64,000 nt of DNA from a virus: the IMG/VR virus record IMGVR_UViG_3300031857_000053, positions 32,001-96,000 of that record; one strand, 5' to 3'. The position numbers and the translations under genes were made by a program. A model generated the notes under the pieces. It made no database searches. It had not been told where the DNA came from and worked only from the letters and a program-made list of their open reading frames with translations. Positions within the stretch are counted from its first letter, which is position 1. Every line of letters begins with the position of its first letter. Below are positions 27,901 through 64,000 of the stretch, one piece after another.

Positions 27901-30900
27901 AAGTTTTAATTAGTCTTCCATGGATGAGTAATTTAGATGTAGATAAAAATCCAGATGCTGAGTCTTCTATTTTATTAAATTCTTTATTTGATCTTAATAA
28001 AAATAGTACAAAATATGGTGAAAGAATAAAAGATGAAAAAACTAAATCTGGATATGTAGAAGTACAATTAAAAAATCTTAGTGGAGTAGCATTTAATAAA
28101 GATGATGTTTATGATGAAAAGAAATCTACTTCTTTATTTAATTCAGATCCTTTAACAAAACTAGTAGCAGATTTTCATACTGGTTTGATGAATGGAAATT
28201 TTGAGTTAATGCGTCACTCAGATAAAGGAACATCTTTTAGTTTCTTTACTACTTCTTTAGATAAAAAGAATATTAATAATAGAAATAAATATTTATATGT
28301 TGATACTGCAGATTTTGTTACAAGTTTAGGAACAAAGAATGCTATTAATAAATATATTTTTCCAACTTTAAATTCAGAATTTAAGCGAATAAAAAAGTTT
28401 AGAAATATTAAACAAGCAGTAGAAGATGCTAGAAAAGAAACTGATCCGGAAAAAAAGAAGGATATGTTTAAAGCAATTGGTAATACTGATTTTAATTATA
28501 TAGAAAAAGGATCTTCTTTTGTAACATTTCAAGGTGTTTTATCTCCAGAAACTAAAGTAAAAATACTTAAGCAACTAGATAAAAATAGTTTAACAGAATA
28601 CTTAAATACTCCAGAAGGTTTTGAATTAAAAGTTGAAATTGGAAAAGATATTCAAAATTATTTTAATAATCAAATTGAAGCTGTAAGTAAAAAGTTTCCT
28701 GTTAGAAGAAGTGGTGTTAAACTTATAAGTGGTGATATTATTAAAAAAATAAAAGATCATGTTACAGCTAATTATACTGAAGGATTAGGTCTTTCACAAA
28801 CAGGAAAAGATATACTTAGAAATACTGATTTTAATAAAGTAGCTTTAAGATCTTTTGTAATTAATTCTTGGATACATAATACTGAAAGTATCAAATTAGT
28901 TTATGGAAACCTTGCTCAATATAATATGGCTAAGGAAGAATTTCATAAGAGAAATGCTGGTTCAAGTTCTACTGGTACACTTTATAGAACTGATAAAGCT
29001 GCAATGGATTATGTAAATAATATTCTTAATGGTGGTGATACATATGCTAAATCAATAGGACAAACTAATAGATATTATGATGGAACTCTTAATACAGCAA
29101 TTGTACAAGATAGTGTTCAAAGATCTGTTTATATAGAAGATTATTCTAAAGACTTAATTGCTGAACAATTAAAAAGAAATGGTGGAAATCAACGAGAAGC
29201 TGAGAAAAAAGTTTTTGGTTACGATGAAAAAAATAATAAAGTTGGTACTCTAGAAAAACCAATTAAGGGTGGATTAATTACAGCATATACTGATATGAAA
29301 GAAGGAGATGGTCAAGGTTGGGTAACTTTTGATTCATATAGAATGCTATTAAACTTAGAAGGTAAGTGGTCAGATTCACAAGAAAATTTATATCAAAAAA
29401 TAGTAAAAGGTGAACAAGTTTCTAGTGCTGATATAGCTTTCTTTTTTCCTCCACAAAAGTTACAATACTGGGGACCTCTTGGTAACAGATTATCTGGTAA
29501 AGCTGCAATAGGACAAAAGATTAATTCTGATGTACAGCTTACAGCTATGCACAAGTTTTCTTTAGTACCACTTATTCCTACTGTAATTAAAGATAAAAGA
29601 ATTCAAAAGCTCCACGATAAGATGGTTCGAGAGCAAGTGGATTATGTAACATTTGAATCCGGATCAAAGATTAGTAATATTACAAGTGCTGAAAAGTTTG
29701 GAGAGAATGGCAAACAAACTTTTGATCTTTTTTACGCAGATAATAAGCGTAATATTAGTGAGGAACCATTTACAATCAATCCTATTTATGTAAACTATTT
29801 AAAGAATCAGTTAGAGATAGCACCTAAGTTTAAAAAGAAAGTAACTTTTTCTACTCAGCTTAGAAAACTTATTGAAGATGGTTTAGTAGAGAATGGTGTG
29901 CCAATTGATTTTGGAAGAAATTTATCTCGTGAAAAAAGAATTGAAGCTTGGGATGCTATTACAACAGAAGATGCTAAGATGGCCGCATCTCCTAAGTATA
30001 AGATCTATAAAACATATGAGAATAAATTAAAGAAACTTACCGAGCTTAAAAGAGATCAACTTTTAGAAGAGATGGGTTGGAAGATGGTGAATGGTAAACC
30101 AGTTGGTACAATAGAGAACTTAGTTAGATTTGTTAAAGCTGAATTAGAAAGACAAAATTTAGGAGATCATGAAATAGATTTCTTAGATGTAGTTGATGGT
30201 GGTACAAAGCTTAAAACAGATGCTTCATTTTCTTTGTCTGCAGATAAGATTGAAAAGTTACTTAATTCTATTGTAGTAAATAGATTGATCAAACAAAAAA
30301 TTAATGGTGAAGCTTTAATCCAAGTATCTACTGCTGGTTATGAAAATAATGAAGCTTGGGATGCAGCAAGAGGTGCTACTGAAGAAGAGTTAGAAAAGTG
30401 GGGAACAGATGATCTTCCTACTTATAGAAAAGGAAAAGATGGAATTACTAAAGCAATGAAAGTGAAAGTTGCTTTACAAGGAAAGTTTTTATCTCTACTT
30501 AATCTTAATCATAATGATGGTCAAACTATAGCTGTTTATGATATTGTTAATGGTAAAAAAGTTCTTAATCTAGAATCATCTAGAACAAGACTTAATTCCA
30601 TGATTAAAAATGAAGAGTGGTTAAATAAAGAAAATCATCGTAAGATGATTACTATGGTTGGTGTTCGTATTCCAGTACAAGGATTAAATTCTATGGAGTT
30701 TATGGAAGTATACGAATTCTTACCAGAGGAAGCAGGTAATATTATTATACCTCCAACAGAGATTGTAGCTAAATCAGGAGCTGACTTCGATATCGATAAG
30801 CTTACAGTGATGATGCCTAATATAAAAACCAAAATAAATAAAGCTAAAATTACTAATGCTTTATTAAGAGAACTTGGTGAAAAAAATCCAACTTTAGATT

Positions 30901-34307: not shown

Positions 34308-37300
34308 ATGTTAGTTTGCCCAAATAAAAACACAACTGAGTGGAAAGATCTTGTAGCCACCGTAGGAGAATTTGAAGCTTTTAGAGACTTCATAGAAAGT
34401 GATTATAATATTAGAGATCCTAAAGTAGTTTTAGAAAAACTTATTAAAAGAGGTATAACTACTACTTCTGAAAAAGTTATTGAATCTTCTATTCAAGAAG
34501 TAAAACCAGGAGTACCAGAACTATTTGATTCTAATCCTGAATTAGCTAATGTTGTATATGAAGCTTTAGGGTTTATTGCAAACATTAATAAATTAAAAAT
34601 TCAAGATTTTAAAACTAAAATAGGCAACTCTGAAAATATTCAAGATGTAGTAGAAAAACTTAAAAAGTATGTAGAAGAATTTAAAGATGCTTATTTTGTA
34701 AATTCCACAAATGAAGATATTCAATCTGATATTTATTTTATAAAAAAAGAAGCAGAAGATAAGTTAAAACAATTTCAAAAAATAGACGACAATATTAAAT
34801 TTGAACTTGTTACAACAAAAGGATTATCTAATAAACAAATAGATGTATATAAATCTGTTATTGATTTTATAAGTAAAAATCCTACGGCTAACCCAAATTC
34901 TGAAAACTATAATCCTAAAGTAATAGAATCATATTTAAAATATGAGCATGAACTAACAGACAAAGAATTAAGAAATATATTTAAAGGCAAAGAAAAACAA
35001 AGGCTTTTAGATTTTATATTTTCACAATTAAGTTTAGCTCAAGCAAGTACAGAAGAAGGAATAAGTGAGTTGCCTGAAAATTTAGTAGAAAAAGAACTAT
35101 CTAAAGTAACCCCACAACAAAAACAACAAGCTCTACAACTCTACTCTCAATATCTTGATTCTATATTTCCTCAAAATACCATAGTATATAGAGGTAGTGA
35201 AAAAGGAAGAACACAATTTAATACAAGAGGATTTTTCACAGAAAAACTATCTTATGCTAAAGAATATGCCTTCGATAAGGGATTTGTTGCTAAATCTGGT
35301 GAAGGTATAGTTAATACATTCTTGATTAATACAGCTAATGTAAAGAATGTAGGAGAAATGAATACTAAATCTATAGAAAATGAAACACAAGATTCTGTGT
35401 TAAAAGGTGTAGACAAAGGTAGAGCTAGAGAATCAGGTGTAGTATATGCAACTACTTCAAAGAACTTACATGAATTAGGTGGTAAACAAGATATAGAAGG
35501 ATTTAAAGAGTTTGTTAATGAACCACAAACTATTATTAAAGAAAGTGTATCAAATCCTTTAGTAGAAGATTTTTTTAAAATTAATGAGCAGGAGATGACC
35601 ATTACTCCATTAGATACTAATAATGCTAATGCAGTAGGGGCACTAACAGCTTTAGCTACTCAATTATCAGAACAATTAGTAGTAGATGGTGAAAAATTTA
35701 AATATCAATTTATAACAGAAGAACAAGCTGCTGCTTTACTTGCTGATAGAAATGAAGAGTGGGATCCAAGTAAAAAAGCTTTTTTCGTTGGCGATACTGT
35801 TTATTTAGTTGGAACAAACCTTAATCTAAATGATGTATTCCACGAGTTCTCTCATCCTTTCCTTAGAAGTATAGCTAAAGCTAATCCACAATTATTTGAA
35901 AAACTTTATCAAACTTTAGCATCTACTCCAGAAGGACAACTTATTATAGATTTTGTAAAAAATAATTATAATGTAGAAGAAGGTAGTATCTATTTTAAAG
36001 AAGAAGTATTAGTACAAGCTCTTACTGCTATTGCAGATATAAATAGAAACAACTTAGTTCCTAGTTCAGGATTCTCAAACTTTATTAAAAATCTATTATA
36101 CCAAATAAAGCAATTTATTAGAAAAGTATTTGGATCTAAAGCTGATGCTAAATCTCCAATAAAAATATCCAGCTTAAATGAAAATACAACTTTGAGAGAA
36201 TTATCTGAAATGCTTAAGGGTGGTACCAAGTTTGAGATTGTAGAAGATAGTTTAACGGAAGAAGATTTTGTAGCTTATAATAAATCGCGTGATGAGATTC
36301 TTACAGATTTAATGAAGCTAAAACAATCAGATAAGATAGCATTAACAGTTCTTGCTCATGATACAGCTCTAAAACAAATTGAGACAGTAATGAGAAGTGG
36401 GAATTATGCTGAGATAGCTAACCTATTAGCTGATGAATTTAAGCGAGGAGATCTTAATGAGATTAAGCGTAACTTAGTAAAGTTTGCTAAGCCTATGGAG
36501 GATATGCTTCTTGATAAAAAGAATGCTATCGAATATACCAAAGCTCATGTTGAAGCTTTCATGGCTTCTCTTTTAAGGATGGATAAAATGCTTAAGACAA
36601 TAGAGAAGCATTTAGAAAGTTTGAGATCAGATATGGATAATATTGATAATCTTCAAAAAGCTTTTTATTATGATTATCTTCTTTCAGATTGGAAAAAATT
36701 TGTTGATCAATTAAGAGAAGCTGCAGATGGAGCAAGGATACCATCTGATTCCGCATTAGAAAGTTTAATATCTAGTCTTGATGGTTCAATTAGAAAAGCT
36801 AAAACATTAACTGGAGAATTTTATCAAGAAGGATCTAAAGATGTTTTATATGCTCAGTTATTACCAATGGCAGAAAAACTAGCTGAGAAGTATAGTAAAA
36901 TTTTTGAAAGTTTAAATAAACCGGGTAAGGTTGCTTCTGATAAAATACAAAATATGTACTATAAAGAGTACTATGGTATGACAAAAGCAGAACACGAGAG
37001 ACATACAACACTCGAAGATCTTAATAGAAAAGGTACTTTAGGAACACAAGAACTTAAAGAGCTTGAAGGTTTAAGATTGTTATCGATGAATGGTGCCCAG
37101 ATTACAAAATATAAAATTGAGATGGCGCTTAAGGGTACATATCGCGATGCTAATGTTTGGAACTCTTTCTTCGAAGGATATACTTTTAATACCGATCCTG
37201 TAATAGGTGGTTTTGCAACTTTTGTTAAAGATGCTATGTCGGATGCTATAGCTAATGCTATGGATAAGATGAATAATTATGCTGCAGATATGAGTGGTCT

Positions 37301-60993: not shown

Positions 60994-61857
60994 TTAAAAT
61001 ATATATCTTATCGTGTTCCAAGGGATAATTTGATCATGTAACTCAGTCCATTCTTTTATATACTGAGCTTTGAGATTGTATTTATACCTTATGTTTTCAC
61101 CACCATACTGTGATACTTTATCCTCTTGGATCTCTGGGTTCCATAGTAGATGTTCTCCTGGTAGATTGTTAGCTACGTTATACTGATGTTTAGCTTCATT
61201 GTGTGTAAGGAAAATTACCTCAGCTTTGACCTTGTCTTTGTGGTCTTCTTTAACAAAGTAATTGATAATGTTAAACAAGTTTCTGTAGCTGTCTAACCAA
61301 CCATCTGTTACTATTACCGGAGAGAAGTTTATATGCACATCATACCCAGCATAAATGAATTTGTCTATAGCTTTTATTCTGTCTAAGATAAGACTTGTAT
61401 TAGGCTCTAGATAATCTGCATATACTTGTGGCATGAGACTAAATCTTATCCTGATTTTACCTTGTGGGTGTACATAGTACAACAAGTTCTCATTTACATA
61501 CTTGGTAGCAAAGGATCCCATCGCTCTAGGATGATTCTTAAAGAAGTCAAATATCTTTTGCCACTCGTGATACTTAGCATGTAAAGCAAAATCTTCATTG
61601 CAGGATATATCATAAGTGATATATTCTGGGTGAGTTTGATTAGGTTTTTCTACATCGGCAAAGGTACAATGATTATTTATCTCTGTAAGAATATCCATAG
61701 TGTTTGTGGCTATATCTAATCCCTCAGATTTATGTCTTTTCATATAACAGTAAGTACAGTTATATAAACAACCATGACCAAAGGAAGGGCTGATATAATC
61801 AGTTGACCTTCCCGATGATCTTATGGTCATAGACTTTCTAGTTACGTGTGTTACCAT
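60994..61857 (-). CDS. splB: Spore photoproduct lyase-like radical SAM enzyme
   Basis: GCLYNCTYCYM (CxxxCxxC), DISCNED, SFATK, RIRFSLMP and H.NFSPVI motifs. Confidence 0.8.
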   Translation of the reverse strand: MVTHVTRKSMTIRSSGRSTDYISPSFGHGCLYNCTYCYMKRHKSEGLDIATNTMDILTEINNHCTFADVEKPNQTHPEYITYDISCNEDFALHAKYHEWQKIFDFFKNHPRAMGSFATKYVNENLLYYVHPQGKIRIRFSLMPQVYADYLEPNTSLILDRIKAIDKFIYAGYDVHINFSPVIVTDGWLDSYRNLFNIINYFVKEDHKDKVKAEVIFLTHNEAKHQYNVANNLPGEHLLWNPEIQEDKVSQYGGENIRYKYNLKAQYIKEWTELHDQIIPWNTIRYIF

Positions 61858-62050
61858 CCTGTTTTATTTTATCAGCATAATCTTCTAAAGCTTGTCTATA
61901 ACCAGCTTCAAAAGCTTCTTTTATTTCTTCATATCTTTCATATTTAGAAATATGATCACCCTTTTCCATGTGATACTTATTGTCTGCATATTTATGAGCA
62001 TCAGCCCATGGATTGTTTGCTAACTCTTTGATTGTTAATTCTTTACTCAT
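61838..62050 (-). CDS. Small hypothetical protein
   Basis: 70-aa ORF with YA....AFEAGY motif. Confidence 0.6.
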   Translation of the reverse strand: MSKELTIKELANNPWADAHKYADNKYHMEKGDHISKYERYEEIKEAFEAGYRQALEDYADKIKQDGNTRN

Positions 62051-62084
62051 AGGTTTAATTTATTGAAGTGTACTTAGCGACAAG

Positions 62085-62454
62085 TTACCAGCAATGCTAC
62101 AACCATTGTCCAGTAAGTAAATCTGCATCTCCGTTCATAAAATCTTCGTCAGTTGGCTCTCTGCTTTCTCCGAATGTTTCTTTTTCGGCATCCCAACCGC
62201 ATTTACTACAACTTTGATAATCAAAATCAATATCATCGTAGTGTCTGCCACATTTAGGGCAATCCTTATGCGGTTGGTTTTCGTAGTATTCATCATCGTA
62301 GAAATCATCTTCCAAATCCGCACTGCTGGTAACAGCACCTTGTTGCAATGCGGGATTTTTCGGTTCATTTAAGTTTTCTGCTTCCATTGAAATTTTATTT
62401 TAAGTTGATAATTATAGGTTTCAAAATCCCGCACTGACAACAAGCTGCGGAACG
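62085..62454 (+). mobile_element. Integron-type gene cassette (core site G|TTACCA to attC end G|TTAGCA)
   Basis: Cassette start GTTACCAGCAATGC (62084-62097) is the reverse complement (13/14) of GCACTGCTGGTAAC (62320-62333), which opens a 134-bp imperfect palindrome. Confidence 0.75.
62097..62387 (-). CDS. Cassette-borne acidic zinc-ribbon protein
   Basis: CPKC...CSKC; start codon in the attC loop; the N-terminal peptide NPALQQGAVTSSA is encoded by the attC left arm. Confidence 0.7.
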   Translation of the reverse strand: MEAENLNEPKNPALQQGAVTSSADLEDDFYDDEYYENQPHKDCPKCGRHYDDIDFDYQSCSKCGWDAEKETFGESREPTDEDFMNGDADLLTGQWL

Positions 62455-62460
62455 TTAGCA
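62327..62460 (+). other. attC-like recombination site
   Basis: Left arm TAAC-A-GCA-C-CTTGTTG-CA-A-TGCGGGATTTT; right arm AAAATCCCGCA-C-TG-A-CAACAAG-C-TGC-GGAAC-GTTA; extra unpaired bases on one arm; AT-rich loop. Confidence 0.75.
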
Positions 62461-62466
62461 CCAATT

Positions 62467-62667
62467 TTAAGAAGTGCTATTACTAACAATTTCATCATTC
62501 AAAAACTTTTCTACGCTTTCTCTTCTTGGTGTTTTCAAAATTATAATTTGACTCCCATCGGTGTCGTGCAAATGAAATAACACTTGTGCTTCAAATTTCA
62601 TACCCACATCACCATTTTTAGGTGAAATAGTTACTACTTTTAATTCTGTATCTTTAAATTTATTCAT
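62467..62667 (-). CDS. Small hypothetical protein, possibly the remnant of a second cassette
   Basis: 66-aa ORF whose stop lies 13 nt from the G of GTTAGCA, the same offset as the first cassette gene. Confidence 0.55.
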   Translation of the reverse strand: MNKFKDTELKVVTISPKNGDVGMKFEAQVLFHLHDTDGSQIIILKTPRRESVEKFLNDEIVSNSTS

Positions 62668-62977
62668 AGTTTAAGTTAATATGTTTAAGTTTCCAGATGT
62701 ATTTAGGATCTTCAGCATAGCCAATTTTAGTTAAGAAAGTATAGTAATTTCCTCTTTTATATCGCGAATATATTTGTTTTGCATATTCTTCACAAGCTTG
62801 TTCTACAGATTCAAATTCTTGTATTTTTCCTTTGTAACTTAATCCAAAAGGATTACACTTGTTTATAAAAGCATCAGATTTTAACCATCCAGTTTCTAAT
62901 ACAGCTTGCTTAGTAACAATTTCTGCGTGTTCACACGGCATATACTGGCACATAAGTGTAAAAATAAATTTTAGCAT
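62660..62977 (-). CDS. Minimal GH73/glucosaminidase-like peptidoglycan hydrolase
   Basis: QAVLETGW (catalytic Glu), NPFGL and GYAEDPKY motifs. Confidence 0.75.
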   Translation of the reverse strand: MLKFIFTLMCQYMPCEHAEIVTKQAVLETGWLKSDAFINKCNPFGLSYKGKIQEFESVEQACEEYAKQIYSRYKRGNYYTFLTKIGYAEDPKYIWKLKHINLNYE

Positions 62978-62988
62978 AAGCTATTAGT

Positions 62989-63309
62989 TTATTTATTTCT
63001 TCTTTCTTCATTAATTAGATATAAAGCATAACCTACTGAATCAGTTTCAGCCACCTTTTGGATTGCTTGTTTCTCACTTAATCCTGCTTCTGTAAATCTA
63101 ATTGCGCGATCATAAAATTCTTCTAGATGAACACGTGCTTCATGAGTAGAGTCTGCTAATCTATTAAGTGAGTCAGAGCTTTTTCTTAATCTTTGGATTT
63201 TTTCTCTAGATTCTTTTTCCTCTTTTGTTTCGGTTGGTTGTTCTTCTTTAGGAGAACAAGAGAAAATTAATAAAGCTAATGCTGCAATAGTTAAAGTTGT
63301 TTTTTTCAT
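62989..63309 (-). CDS. Predicted lipoprotein
   Basis: MKK, hydrophobic stretch and lipobox-like IFSC. Confidence 0.7.
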   Translation of the reverse strand: MKKTTLTIAALALLIFSCSPKEEQPTETKEEKESREKIQRLRKSSDSLNRLADSTHEARVHLEEFYDRAIRFTEAGLSEKQAIQKVAETDSVGYALYLINEERRNK

Positions 63310-63402
63310 GTTGTTTTTTATTTATTTATTTATTTTAGTAAAGCAAGAATTGATATGATTAAGCTCATACAAGCTATAAGTAATGCAATAGTGCTACGAT
63401 TA

Positions 63403-63873
63403 CTATATCTTTTTTTCATATTTAATTTTATTTAATTTTCTAATATAGATTAGTTGTTCATCAATTGATTTGAATGTATTATTTGATTCTATCTTTTGAA
63501 TTAATCTTTCTTTATAAGATCTAGATTCAGTGTGTTGATAGAACCTTTCTCTTTCAATATCTTTTAATGAATAATCTAATTTTTTTATTACACCATCATT
63601 ACAAAACTTTTCTAAATCATCTTCTGTTAATTCAGTATAATATCCTGTAAACTTAGATTTAAGTTTTGCTTTTGGTTGATTATATTTATCAGTAGCCGGC
63701 ATTACTTTTATCCTTTCGGTATAATCTGAAAATACAATATAGATAACATCTCTTACTACTTCAGATGGTAATTGAAGCAACCTTGCTGTATGTAATATTG
63801 TTCTATTTTCTTTGATACAATAGCGATAAATTTTTTTACGCAATGTCAAAGACATACGAGTACATGGTGTCAT
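63403..63873 (-). CDS. Hypothetical protein (possible N-terminal HTH)
   Basis: 156-aa ORF; TILHTARLLQLPSEVVRDVI. Confidence 0.55.
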   Translation of the reverse strand: MTPCTRMSLTLRKKIYRYCIKENRTILHTARLLQLPSEVVRDVIYIVFSDYTERIKVMPATDKYNQPKAKLKSKFTGYYTELTEDDLEKFCNDGVIKKLDYSLKDIERERFYQHTESRSYKERLIQKIESNNTFKSIDEQLIYIRKLNKIKYEKKI

Positions 63874-63890
63874 GATATTTTAATTATTAT

Positions 63891-63998
63891 TTATACTGCT
63901 TCTGGGAATTCTACTGCTTCTTTTTCAGCTTCTCTCATTATTTTTTCTAATTTCTCTTCTACCCAAGCATCTTCTACAAATTGATCTACAATAATACC
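63891..63998 (-). CDS. 3' end of a gene truncated by the window edge
   Basis: Open frame GIIVDQFVEDAWVEEKLEKIMREAEKEAVEFPEAV-TAA. Confidence 0.5.
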   Translation of the reverse strand, partial: GIIVDQFVEDAWVEEKLEKIMREAEKEAVEFPEAV

Positions 63999-64000
63999 AA

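Follow-up and report, generated by a model that had tools for sequence, protein, structure and literature searches.

The integration of CTX phage by XerCD takes place at a site that is formed by folding one DNA strand. In attI1, the ORF-11 translation initiation region is an example of a recombination site that supplies start signals for cassette genes, and Arbiol et al. in 2010 reportedly described the PeSL regulatory cassettes of T4-type phages. The presence of attC clusters in phages is already published, as Qi et al. 2023 reported them in 17 phages and found that IntI1 recombined 5 of the 6 sites tested (PMC9892861). The tested site that IntI1 did not recombine, P12002L_attC1 from a Polaribacter phage, had been called by HattCI; the phage sites were read as divergent attCs, and a flipped cassette logic is not described (PMC9892861). 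Classical integrons are almost absent from the Bacteroidetes, where IntegronFinder 2.0 identified a single complete integron (PMC9024848). Our literature search found no paper describing the site family presented here.

The window analyzed in this work is a stretch of 64,000 nucleotides contained in a 107-kb IMG/VR virus record with a completeness estimate of 91%. Seven of its ORFs are 868 to 4124 aa long, which fits the crAss-like label given by the initial annotation. In the ORF list, the final 2 kb of the window are made up of small minus-strand genes. The genes around the locus are given below in their order of transcription, from first to last:

62660-62977, minus strand: glucosaminidase-like gene (ORF list)
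62467-62667, minus strand: 66-aa gene (ORF list)
62097-62387, minus strand: 96-aa gene (ORF list)
61838-62050, minus strand: 70-aa gene (ORF list)
60994-61857, minus strand: spore-photoproduct-lyase-like (SPL-like) radical SAM gene (Pfam)

The SPL-like radical SAM gene is conserved in no fewer than 80 viral contigs (L004-L083; 69-81% aa identity), and since the genes upstream of it are different in nearly all 80, this is a hypervariable accessory region. A blastn search of window positions 61000-64000 against GenBank phages gave no match, and the glucosaminidase and 70-aa neighbor genes have no relatives among the viral contigs scanned. A related-phage contig from the wetland metagenome run X13 has 321 other bases instead of window 61858-62648, a replaced block that comprises the 70-aa gene, the cassette discussed below and most of the 66-aa gene, and it retains the flanks 61795-61857 and 62649-62900.

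Positions 62085-62454 of this crAss-like phage accessory region are, with good confidence, an integron-type cassette that lies beside the 3' remnant of a second cassette. The intact unit is 370 bases long. The proposed parts of both cassettes are as follows, with a slash marking the point of cutting:

62085-62454, minus strand: intact mobile cassette from G/TT to G/TT, made up of folded site, gene and 3' tail (blastn against L096)
62323-62462, minus strand: attC-like folded recombination site (covariance model R1, folds, 22-site alignment)
62423-62448, minus strand: hairpin 5' arm, gene-sense (inverted repeats I5 and I12)
62360-62422, minus strand: loop with A/T-rich leader, ATG and codons 1-9 (sequence, ORF list, centroid folds)
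62335-62359, minus strand: hairpin 3' arm, codons 10-18 (inverted repeats, folds, reading frame)
62320-62333, minus strand: inner core box, GTTACCAGCAGTGC on the sense strand, codons 19-23 (13/14 pairing with 62084-62097)
62097-62387, minus strand: gene for the 96-aa acidic zinc-ribbon protein (ORF list)
62084-62097, minus strand: 3' tail, GCATTGCTGGTAAC on the sense strand, 14 nt, terminating at the crossover (repeat finder, end of L096 homology)
62455-62654, minus strand: second-cassette remnant, most of the 66-aa gene (ORF 62467-62667) and the tail AATTGGTGCTAA(C) (homology to L167 and L168)

Read along the gene-sense strand, the folded site consists of TGCTAAC, a G with a 4-nt bulge, the 5' arm, the 63-nt loop, the 3' arm, a T and GTTACCA. 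In general form, a site of this kind reads, on one strand, G, a bulge of 4-5 nt, a long imperfect stem with a large loop, T and GTTA..., and the 14-nt tail of each cassette ends in AAC. The repeat finder returns the inner arms as two pairings, 62346-62359 with 62423-62436 (14 nt, 93%) and 62335-62345 with 62438-62448 (11 nt, 91%), which enclose the 63-nt loop. The outer boxes are ...GGTAAC at 62328-62333 and GTTAGCA at 62454-62460. The initial annotation had described an imperfect palindrome at 62327-62460 with AAC and GTT ends, and its arms, boxes and GTT sites are all present. The gene's ATG is at 62385-62387, inside the hairpin loop, and the 3' arm supplies codons 10-18, as expected from the earlier proposal that the start codon sits in an attC loop with one arm encoding the N-terminus. 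The GTT box encodes codons 19-23 (VTSSA). With GTT at both 62084-62086 and 62454-62456, a cut at G/TT would yield cassette 62085-62454. The stop codons at 62097-62099 and 62467-62469 are each located 13 nt from their own GTT, an offset that had been pointed out before and is confirmed from the sequence. The base following the right-hand AAC is T, instead of the G that is invariant in sites, and the cassette is accordingly not followed by another site. The junction without a further downstream site reads AAC/TTGT in the window (62084) and also at the 3' end of L087, which may reflect a preferred secondary target or may be chance.

The 3' tail at 62084-62097 pairs with the inner core box at 62320-62333 at 13 of 14 positions (repeat finder). 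By itself, a 13/14 long-range pair is within chance for a 107-kb genome: the strict GTT...AAC pair occurs once, against a mean of 0.45 over 40 shuffles. Genome-wide, GTT...AAC long-range pairs are not enriched (29, with about 33 in shuffles), and none of the four other candidate long-range pairs in the genome has an adjacent hairpin. The pair is considered real because the same pairing, with other letters, is kept in 14/14 homologous cassettes. In all 14, the tail-box helix is 14 nt in length, built from six different cores, with a G.T at helix position 11 and a tail that is constantly 13 nt from the stop codon. The inverse core of the window pairs at 13/14 with its own end and at 7/9 with the adjacent half-site. 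In 34 cassettes whose genes are unrelated, the box matches its own tail at 9.2 of 11 positions versus 5.9 of 11 for the adjacent half-site, and the claim that the inverse core fits its own far end better than its neighbor is therefore upheld beyond this locus. Own-end complementarity of this kind is what classically identifies an integrated integron cassette; the R helix is longer in the present case. The position-11 G.T wobble is found in 27 of the 34 cassettes with unrelated genes, and a second G.T adjoins the crossover in 22/22 sites.

A simple scan of the loci of homologous cassettes reveals that such hairpins occur in rows and always on the gene strand, and 22 of these sites were aligned for a structure count and for the covariance model R1. 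RNAalifold on a MAFFT alignment gave only 8 pairs, and the structure was therefore set by hand. With the hand-set structure, 74% of cells in the 22 sites are paired, compared with 61% in shuffles and 33-52% when the structure is slid, and 102 double-change cells are observed versus 47 in shuffled alignments. AACG and TGTT are invariant in 22/22 aligned sites, and about 8 nt are conserved between sites. R1 scores 124.2 bits at 62323-62462 on the minus strand, which is its sole match in the 107-kb phage genome. It finds 38 sites in the homologue loci, every one on the gene strand, and zero in 562 kb around the SPL-like gene of the 80 related phages. An Rfam search gave chance-level matches only, and the palindrome is unique within the 107-kb genome. 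The hairpin folds at -26.5 kcal/mol as DNA (z -3.8 versus shuffles) and at -43.3 kcal/mol as RNA (z -3.7 versus shuffles), and both strands form a long stem with a 63-nt open loop that has no pairs in either the DNA or the RNA centroid fold. In the fold check that had been recommended, either strand thus does better than shuffles, at z about -4.

These data bear on the simplest alternative, that of a chance palindrome without function. The 13/14 pair alone would be compatible with it, being within chance for a 107-kb genome, but covariation in 14 homologues and 22 sites, a fold z of about -4, and R1 matches elsewhere with zero in 562 kb of control phage DNA are not, and we give this alternative practically no weight. 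It was rejected on the covariation in the 22 sites and the homologues and on the R1 matches in homologue loci. Homologous repeats of the PeSL type were also rejected, as the site is unique in the genome and conservation between sites is limited to those roughly 8 nt.

The 96-aa protein has 73 metagenomic relatives, and loci were retrieved for many of them. The loci of these homologues have nothing else in common with this phage. L096 is 95.7% identical to the window over 62084-62457 and has unrelated flanks (blastn). The left homology boundary is identical in L097, L136 and L096, and one X13 contig diverges from the window at 62457. Since homology is confined to 62084-62457 with unrelated flanks, the unit of inheritance is the hairpin, the gene and the tail, from GTT to GTT. 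The hairpin arms in L086, L101 and L137 differ in their letters yet pair, and stem and tail-box complementarity is kept with different letters in L086, L098, L101, L137, L102, L111 and L109. A short-form subfamily, whose entire hairpin is upstream of the ATG, keeps it as well. The L097 copy, which is 98% identical, drops homology about 27 nt before the gene's stop codon (L097 1238-1286), a pattern that recombination or a chimeric assembly may explain. In the contigs of four public runs, there is no empty site, no circular junction and no contig joining precisely across the cassette; the coverage gaps on the stretch in these contigs are low-depth assembly breaks. The 80 SPL-like-gene loci contain no cassette and are too diverged for an empty-site test at the nucleotide level. 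No recombination event has been observed for the cassette.

The 66-aa gene next to it had been suggested to be a second, eroded cassette, and its relatives bear this out. Homologues at 85-86% aa identity are found in the viral contigs L167 and L168, where the gene is part of an intact cassette with an R1 match directly upstream (L167:1356-1491); in both contigs, GTTAGCACCAGTT precedes the ATG and AATTGGTGCTAAC comes after the stop codon. The homology of the window to L167 and L168 is limited to 62654-62454, which indicates that the copy in the window has lost its hairpin and first codons and has been joined to the glucosaminidase gene. The hairpin of the 96-aa gene takes its outer half-site from the tail of the 66-aa gene. 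A partner box for this tail was not found in the window because the cassette is 5'-truncated. The boundaries in relatives, which were predicted to fall at G/TT, map to both GTT sites (L096, L167).

Beyond phages, R1 matches Flavobacterium and Chitinophagaceae MAGs that carry homologues of the 96-aa protein. The initial annotation had proposed a search for similar sites in the rest of the genome and in hosts; this yields the one R1 match in the phage genome and, in host-type genomes, matches in 67 of the 81 sampled from the family of the Flavobacterium MAG. On contig C4 of this MAG, four sites are followed by a 361-aa tyrosine recombinase (L162:6345-7430). The enzyme passes the NCBIfam model NF040815 "tyrosine recombinase/integron integrase" (227 bits, cut-off 220) and fails TIGR02249 (204 bits versus a cut-off of 265), matching the latter in two separate stretches. 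The IntI-specific insert is absent, with about 18 residues where TIGR02249 has about 75 positions. Counting this enzyme and its homologues in three further genomes, a recombinase is located within 6 kb of arrays in four genomes (G004:C4, G046:C29, G040:C1 and G048:C2). The co-oriented arrays beside this Xer/IntI-like tyrosine recombinase in Flavobacterium-type chromosomes are shown to use the same site family, and phage and Flavobacterium-type host appear to have one pool of swappable genes in common. One cassette of a Flavobacterium chromosomal array encodes a SLATT-domain protein (L162 2702-3586). One R1 site in the Flavobacterium MAG (L163, G004:C64:33160-33694) has a Y1 transposase gene of the IS200/IS605 type at a distance of 140 nt.

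The last of these sites is relevant to a second alternative, in which the hairpin belongs to another kind of single-strand element, for example an HUH/Y1 (IS200/IS605-type) element cutting 3' of a TAAC-like target. Such elements likewise rely on single strands that fold and on short pairings as guides, and the site beside a Y1 gene would be in keeping with them. The arrays in four genomes, however, adjoin a tyrosine recombinase and not a Y1 transposase, and the four phage records tested for PF01797 gave no match. There is also one hairpin per unit, the other end being a pairing partner instead of a second hairpin, and co-oriented single-gene arrays with AAC and GTT cores are integron traits. 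An HUH/Y1 element is very unlikely on this evidence.

Phage-like and bacterial arrays differ in how the gene is oriented relative to the fold. When the longest ORF of each interval between sites is taken, it is opposite the folding strand in 41/44 intervals of bacterial arrays and on the folding strand in 27/27 intervals of phage-like arrays. The phage-like polarity set was reached via two flipped cassettes, and the array neighbors are unrelated genes. The fold is more stable on the sense strand in 28/33 sites (p = 1e-5), and the G.T pairs on this strand are biased in direction, the G belonging to the 5' arm in 73 cases and to the 3' arm in 10. No extrahelical bases are conserved on the 3' arm, and the stem bulges vary in position; unpaired bases form a bulge of 4-5 nt on the 5' side, compared with 0-1 nt on the 3' side. 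The gene in the window is on the folding ("bottom") strand with its start in the loop, in agreement with the earlier description of a gene antisense to the normal cassette orientation.

It is on this point that a third alternative has to be weighed, namely that the hairpin is mainly an mRNA element (acting in translation control, RNA stability or processing) and that the gene moves by ordinary or illegitimate recombination. The coincidence of folding strand and sense strand in 27/27 phage-like intervals would be expected of such an element, G.T pairs would become G.U in RNA, and the ATG is within an open loop. The bacterial arrays fold on the antisense strand in 41/44 intervals, however, so the structure is not tied to mRNA. 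An mRNA element would also leave own-end complementarity without a role, and the unit ends on the same nucleotide across unrelated contexts. We regard this alternative as improbable.

The initial annotation noted that no integrase is encoded in the window, and this absence extends to the whole 107-kb record, in which no tyrosine recombinase was found. A search of nine other phage records, P12002L and eight from IMG/VR, found no recombinase either. Four of these IMG/VR records have model-confirmed sites (G001, G086, G087 and G088) and four have only the gene homologue; the search set also includes G002, G003 and G089, while G001 is complete and G086 has terminal repeats. With no recombinase in the phage, the enzyme would have to act in trans, and its identity is inferred. 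The earlier proposal of "an IntI in trans" can be kept as far as the lack of a phage recombinase is concerned. The naming of IntI cannot, since the linked bacterial enzyme is Xer/IntI-like without the IntI-specific insert, and "integron-like tyrosine recombinase in trans" is the better wording.

A mechanism can be proposed for the integron-type cassette, although no recombination has been shown. A recombinase from the host or a co-infecting phage is inferred to have inserted the cassettes in trans, acting on the folded sense strand. Strand exchange would take place at AA/C (G/TT on the opposite strand), as in integrons. In a circular cassette, the tail and the box would close into a 14-bp R-type helix beneath the stem. 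In mRNA, judging from its anatomy, the site would act as a stem presenting the A-rich leader and the ATG in an open loop. The first 23 codons would then be recombination-site sequence translated as a disordered N-terminal extension. In the AlphaFold model of the 96-aa protein, residues 1-30 have low pLDDT and the core has about 82, and short homologues without the N-terminal extension exist. The protein itself is an acidic zinc ribbon (CPKCG...CSKCG). Pfam and PHROGs gave only weak zinc-ribbon matches below the cut-off, no PDB structure was matched by Foldseek at E <= 0.001, and an Atlas search returned only unnamed viral clusters.

Taken more broadly, we lean somewhat toward the view that Bacteroidota and their phages share an integron-like exchange system. 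It would be set apart from classical integrons by an Xer-like recombinase that has no IntI insert, an R helix of 14 bp in which one G.T is fixed, and a bulge on the 5' side, and would comprise two cassette pools of opposite polarity; in phages, the site would be transcribed as a 5' stem with the start codon in its loop and would be partly translated. Classical integrons are nearly absent from the Bacteroidetes, yet 67/81 of the genomes sampled from one family, and several phages as well, carry the site family. If active, the system would allow lytic phages of abundant freshwater and marine bacteria to gain single accessory genes from a shared pool without a recombinase of their own, which would explain in concrete terms how the hypervariable "moron" regions of such phages arise. 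The flipped polarity raises the question of what a recombination hairpin does inside an mRNA and a protein N-terminus.

Many features are shared with classical integrons. These include single-gene units bounded at G/TT, an imperfect hairpin with AAC and GTT cores, an inverse core that matches its own other end, and one strand that folds better than the other. Co-oriented arrays beside a tyrosine recombinase are also shared, as is the location of bacterial-array genes on the non-folding strand. The differences are found in both the enzyme and the site. The recombinase beside these arrays is without the IntI-specific insert. A classical attC has an R helix of 7 bp; in the present site family it extends to 14 bp, and position 11 is a fixed G.T. 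Classical attCs also have an unpaired central spacer and, on the bottom strand, extrahelical bases in the 3' arm, in place of which a 4-5-nt bulge on the 5' side is found here. In a classical cassette, the gene is opposite the folding strand with the site behind it, whereas the gene of a phage cassette is on the folding strand with the site in front. The window also differs from a CALIN, an attC cluster without integrase, in having a single intact site and a truncated cassette, which is below the two-site CALIN rule.

More distant systems resemble the locus in single respects. In CTX, an Xer-type tyrosine recombinase likewise works on a folded single-strand site, but a whole phage genome is integrated at dif, in contrast to the single genes, AAC and GTT cores and arrays found here. 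PeSLs are similar in that small phage accessory genes are bracketed by stem-loop intergenic modules in hyperplastic regions; they are sequence repeats that recombine by homology, whereas the site in the window is unique in its genome. In attI1, the translation signal belongs to the platform, while that of the window is part of the site of the cassette itself and moves together with the gene.

A published site of the same family as that of the window, P12002L_attC1, is in the Polaribacter phage P12002L. The sequence published as P12002L_attC2 is present twice in this phage (L146), at 29197-29225, where it overlaps the tail of the gp35 cassette, and at 37223-37251, near the Mom-like gp53. P12002L is like the window phage in that an integrase was not found. 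P12002L_attC1 has the same format as the site in the window, TGCTAAC G...hairpin...T GTTAGGC, and precedes gp35 on the sense strand. The tail that matches it, GTGCCTAAC, comes after the gp35 stop codon, giving the same flipped layout as the cassette in the window.
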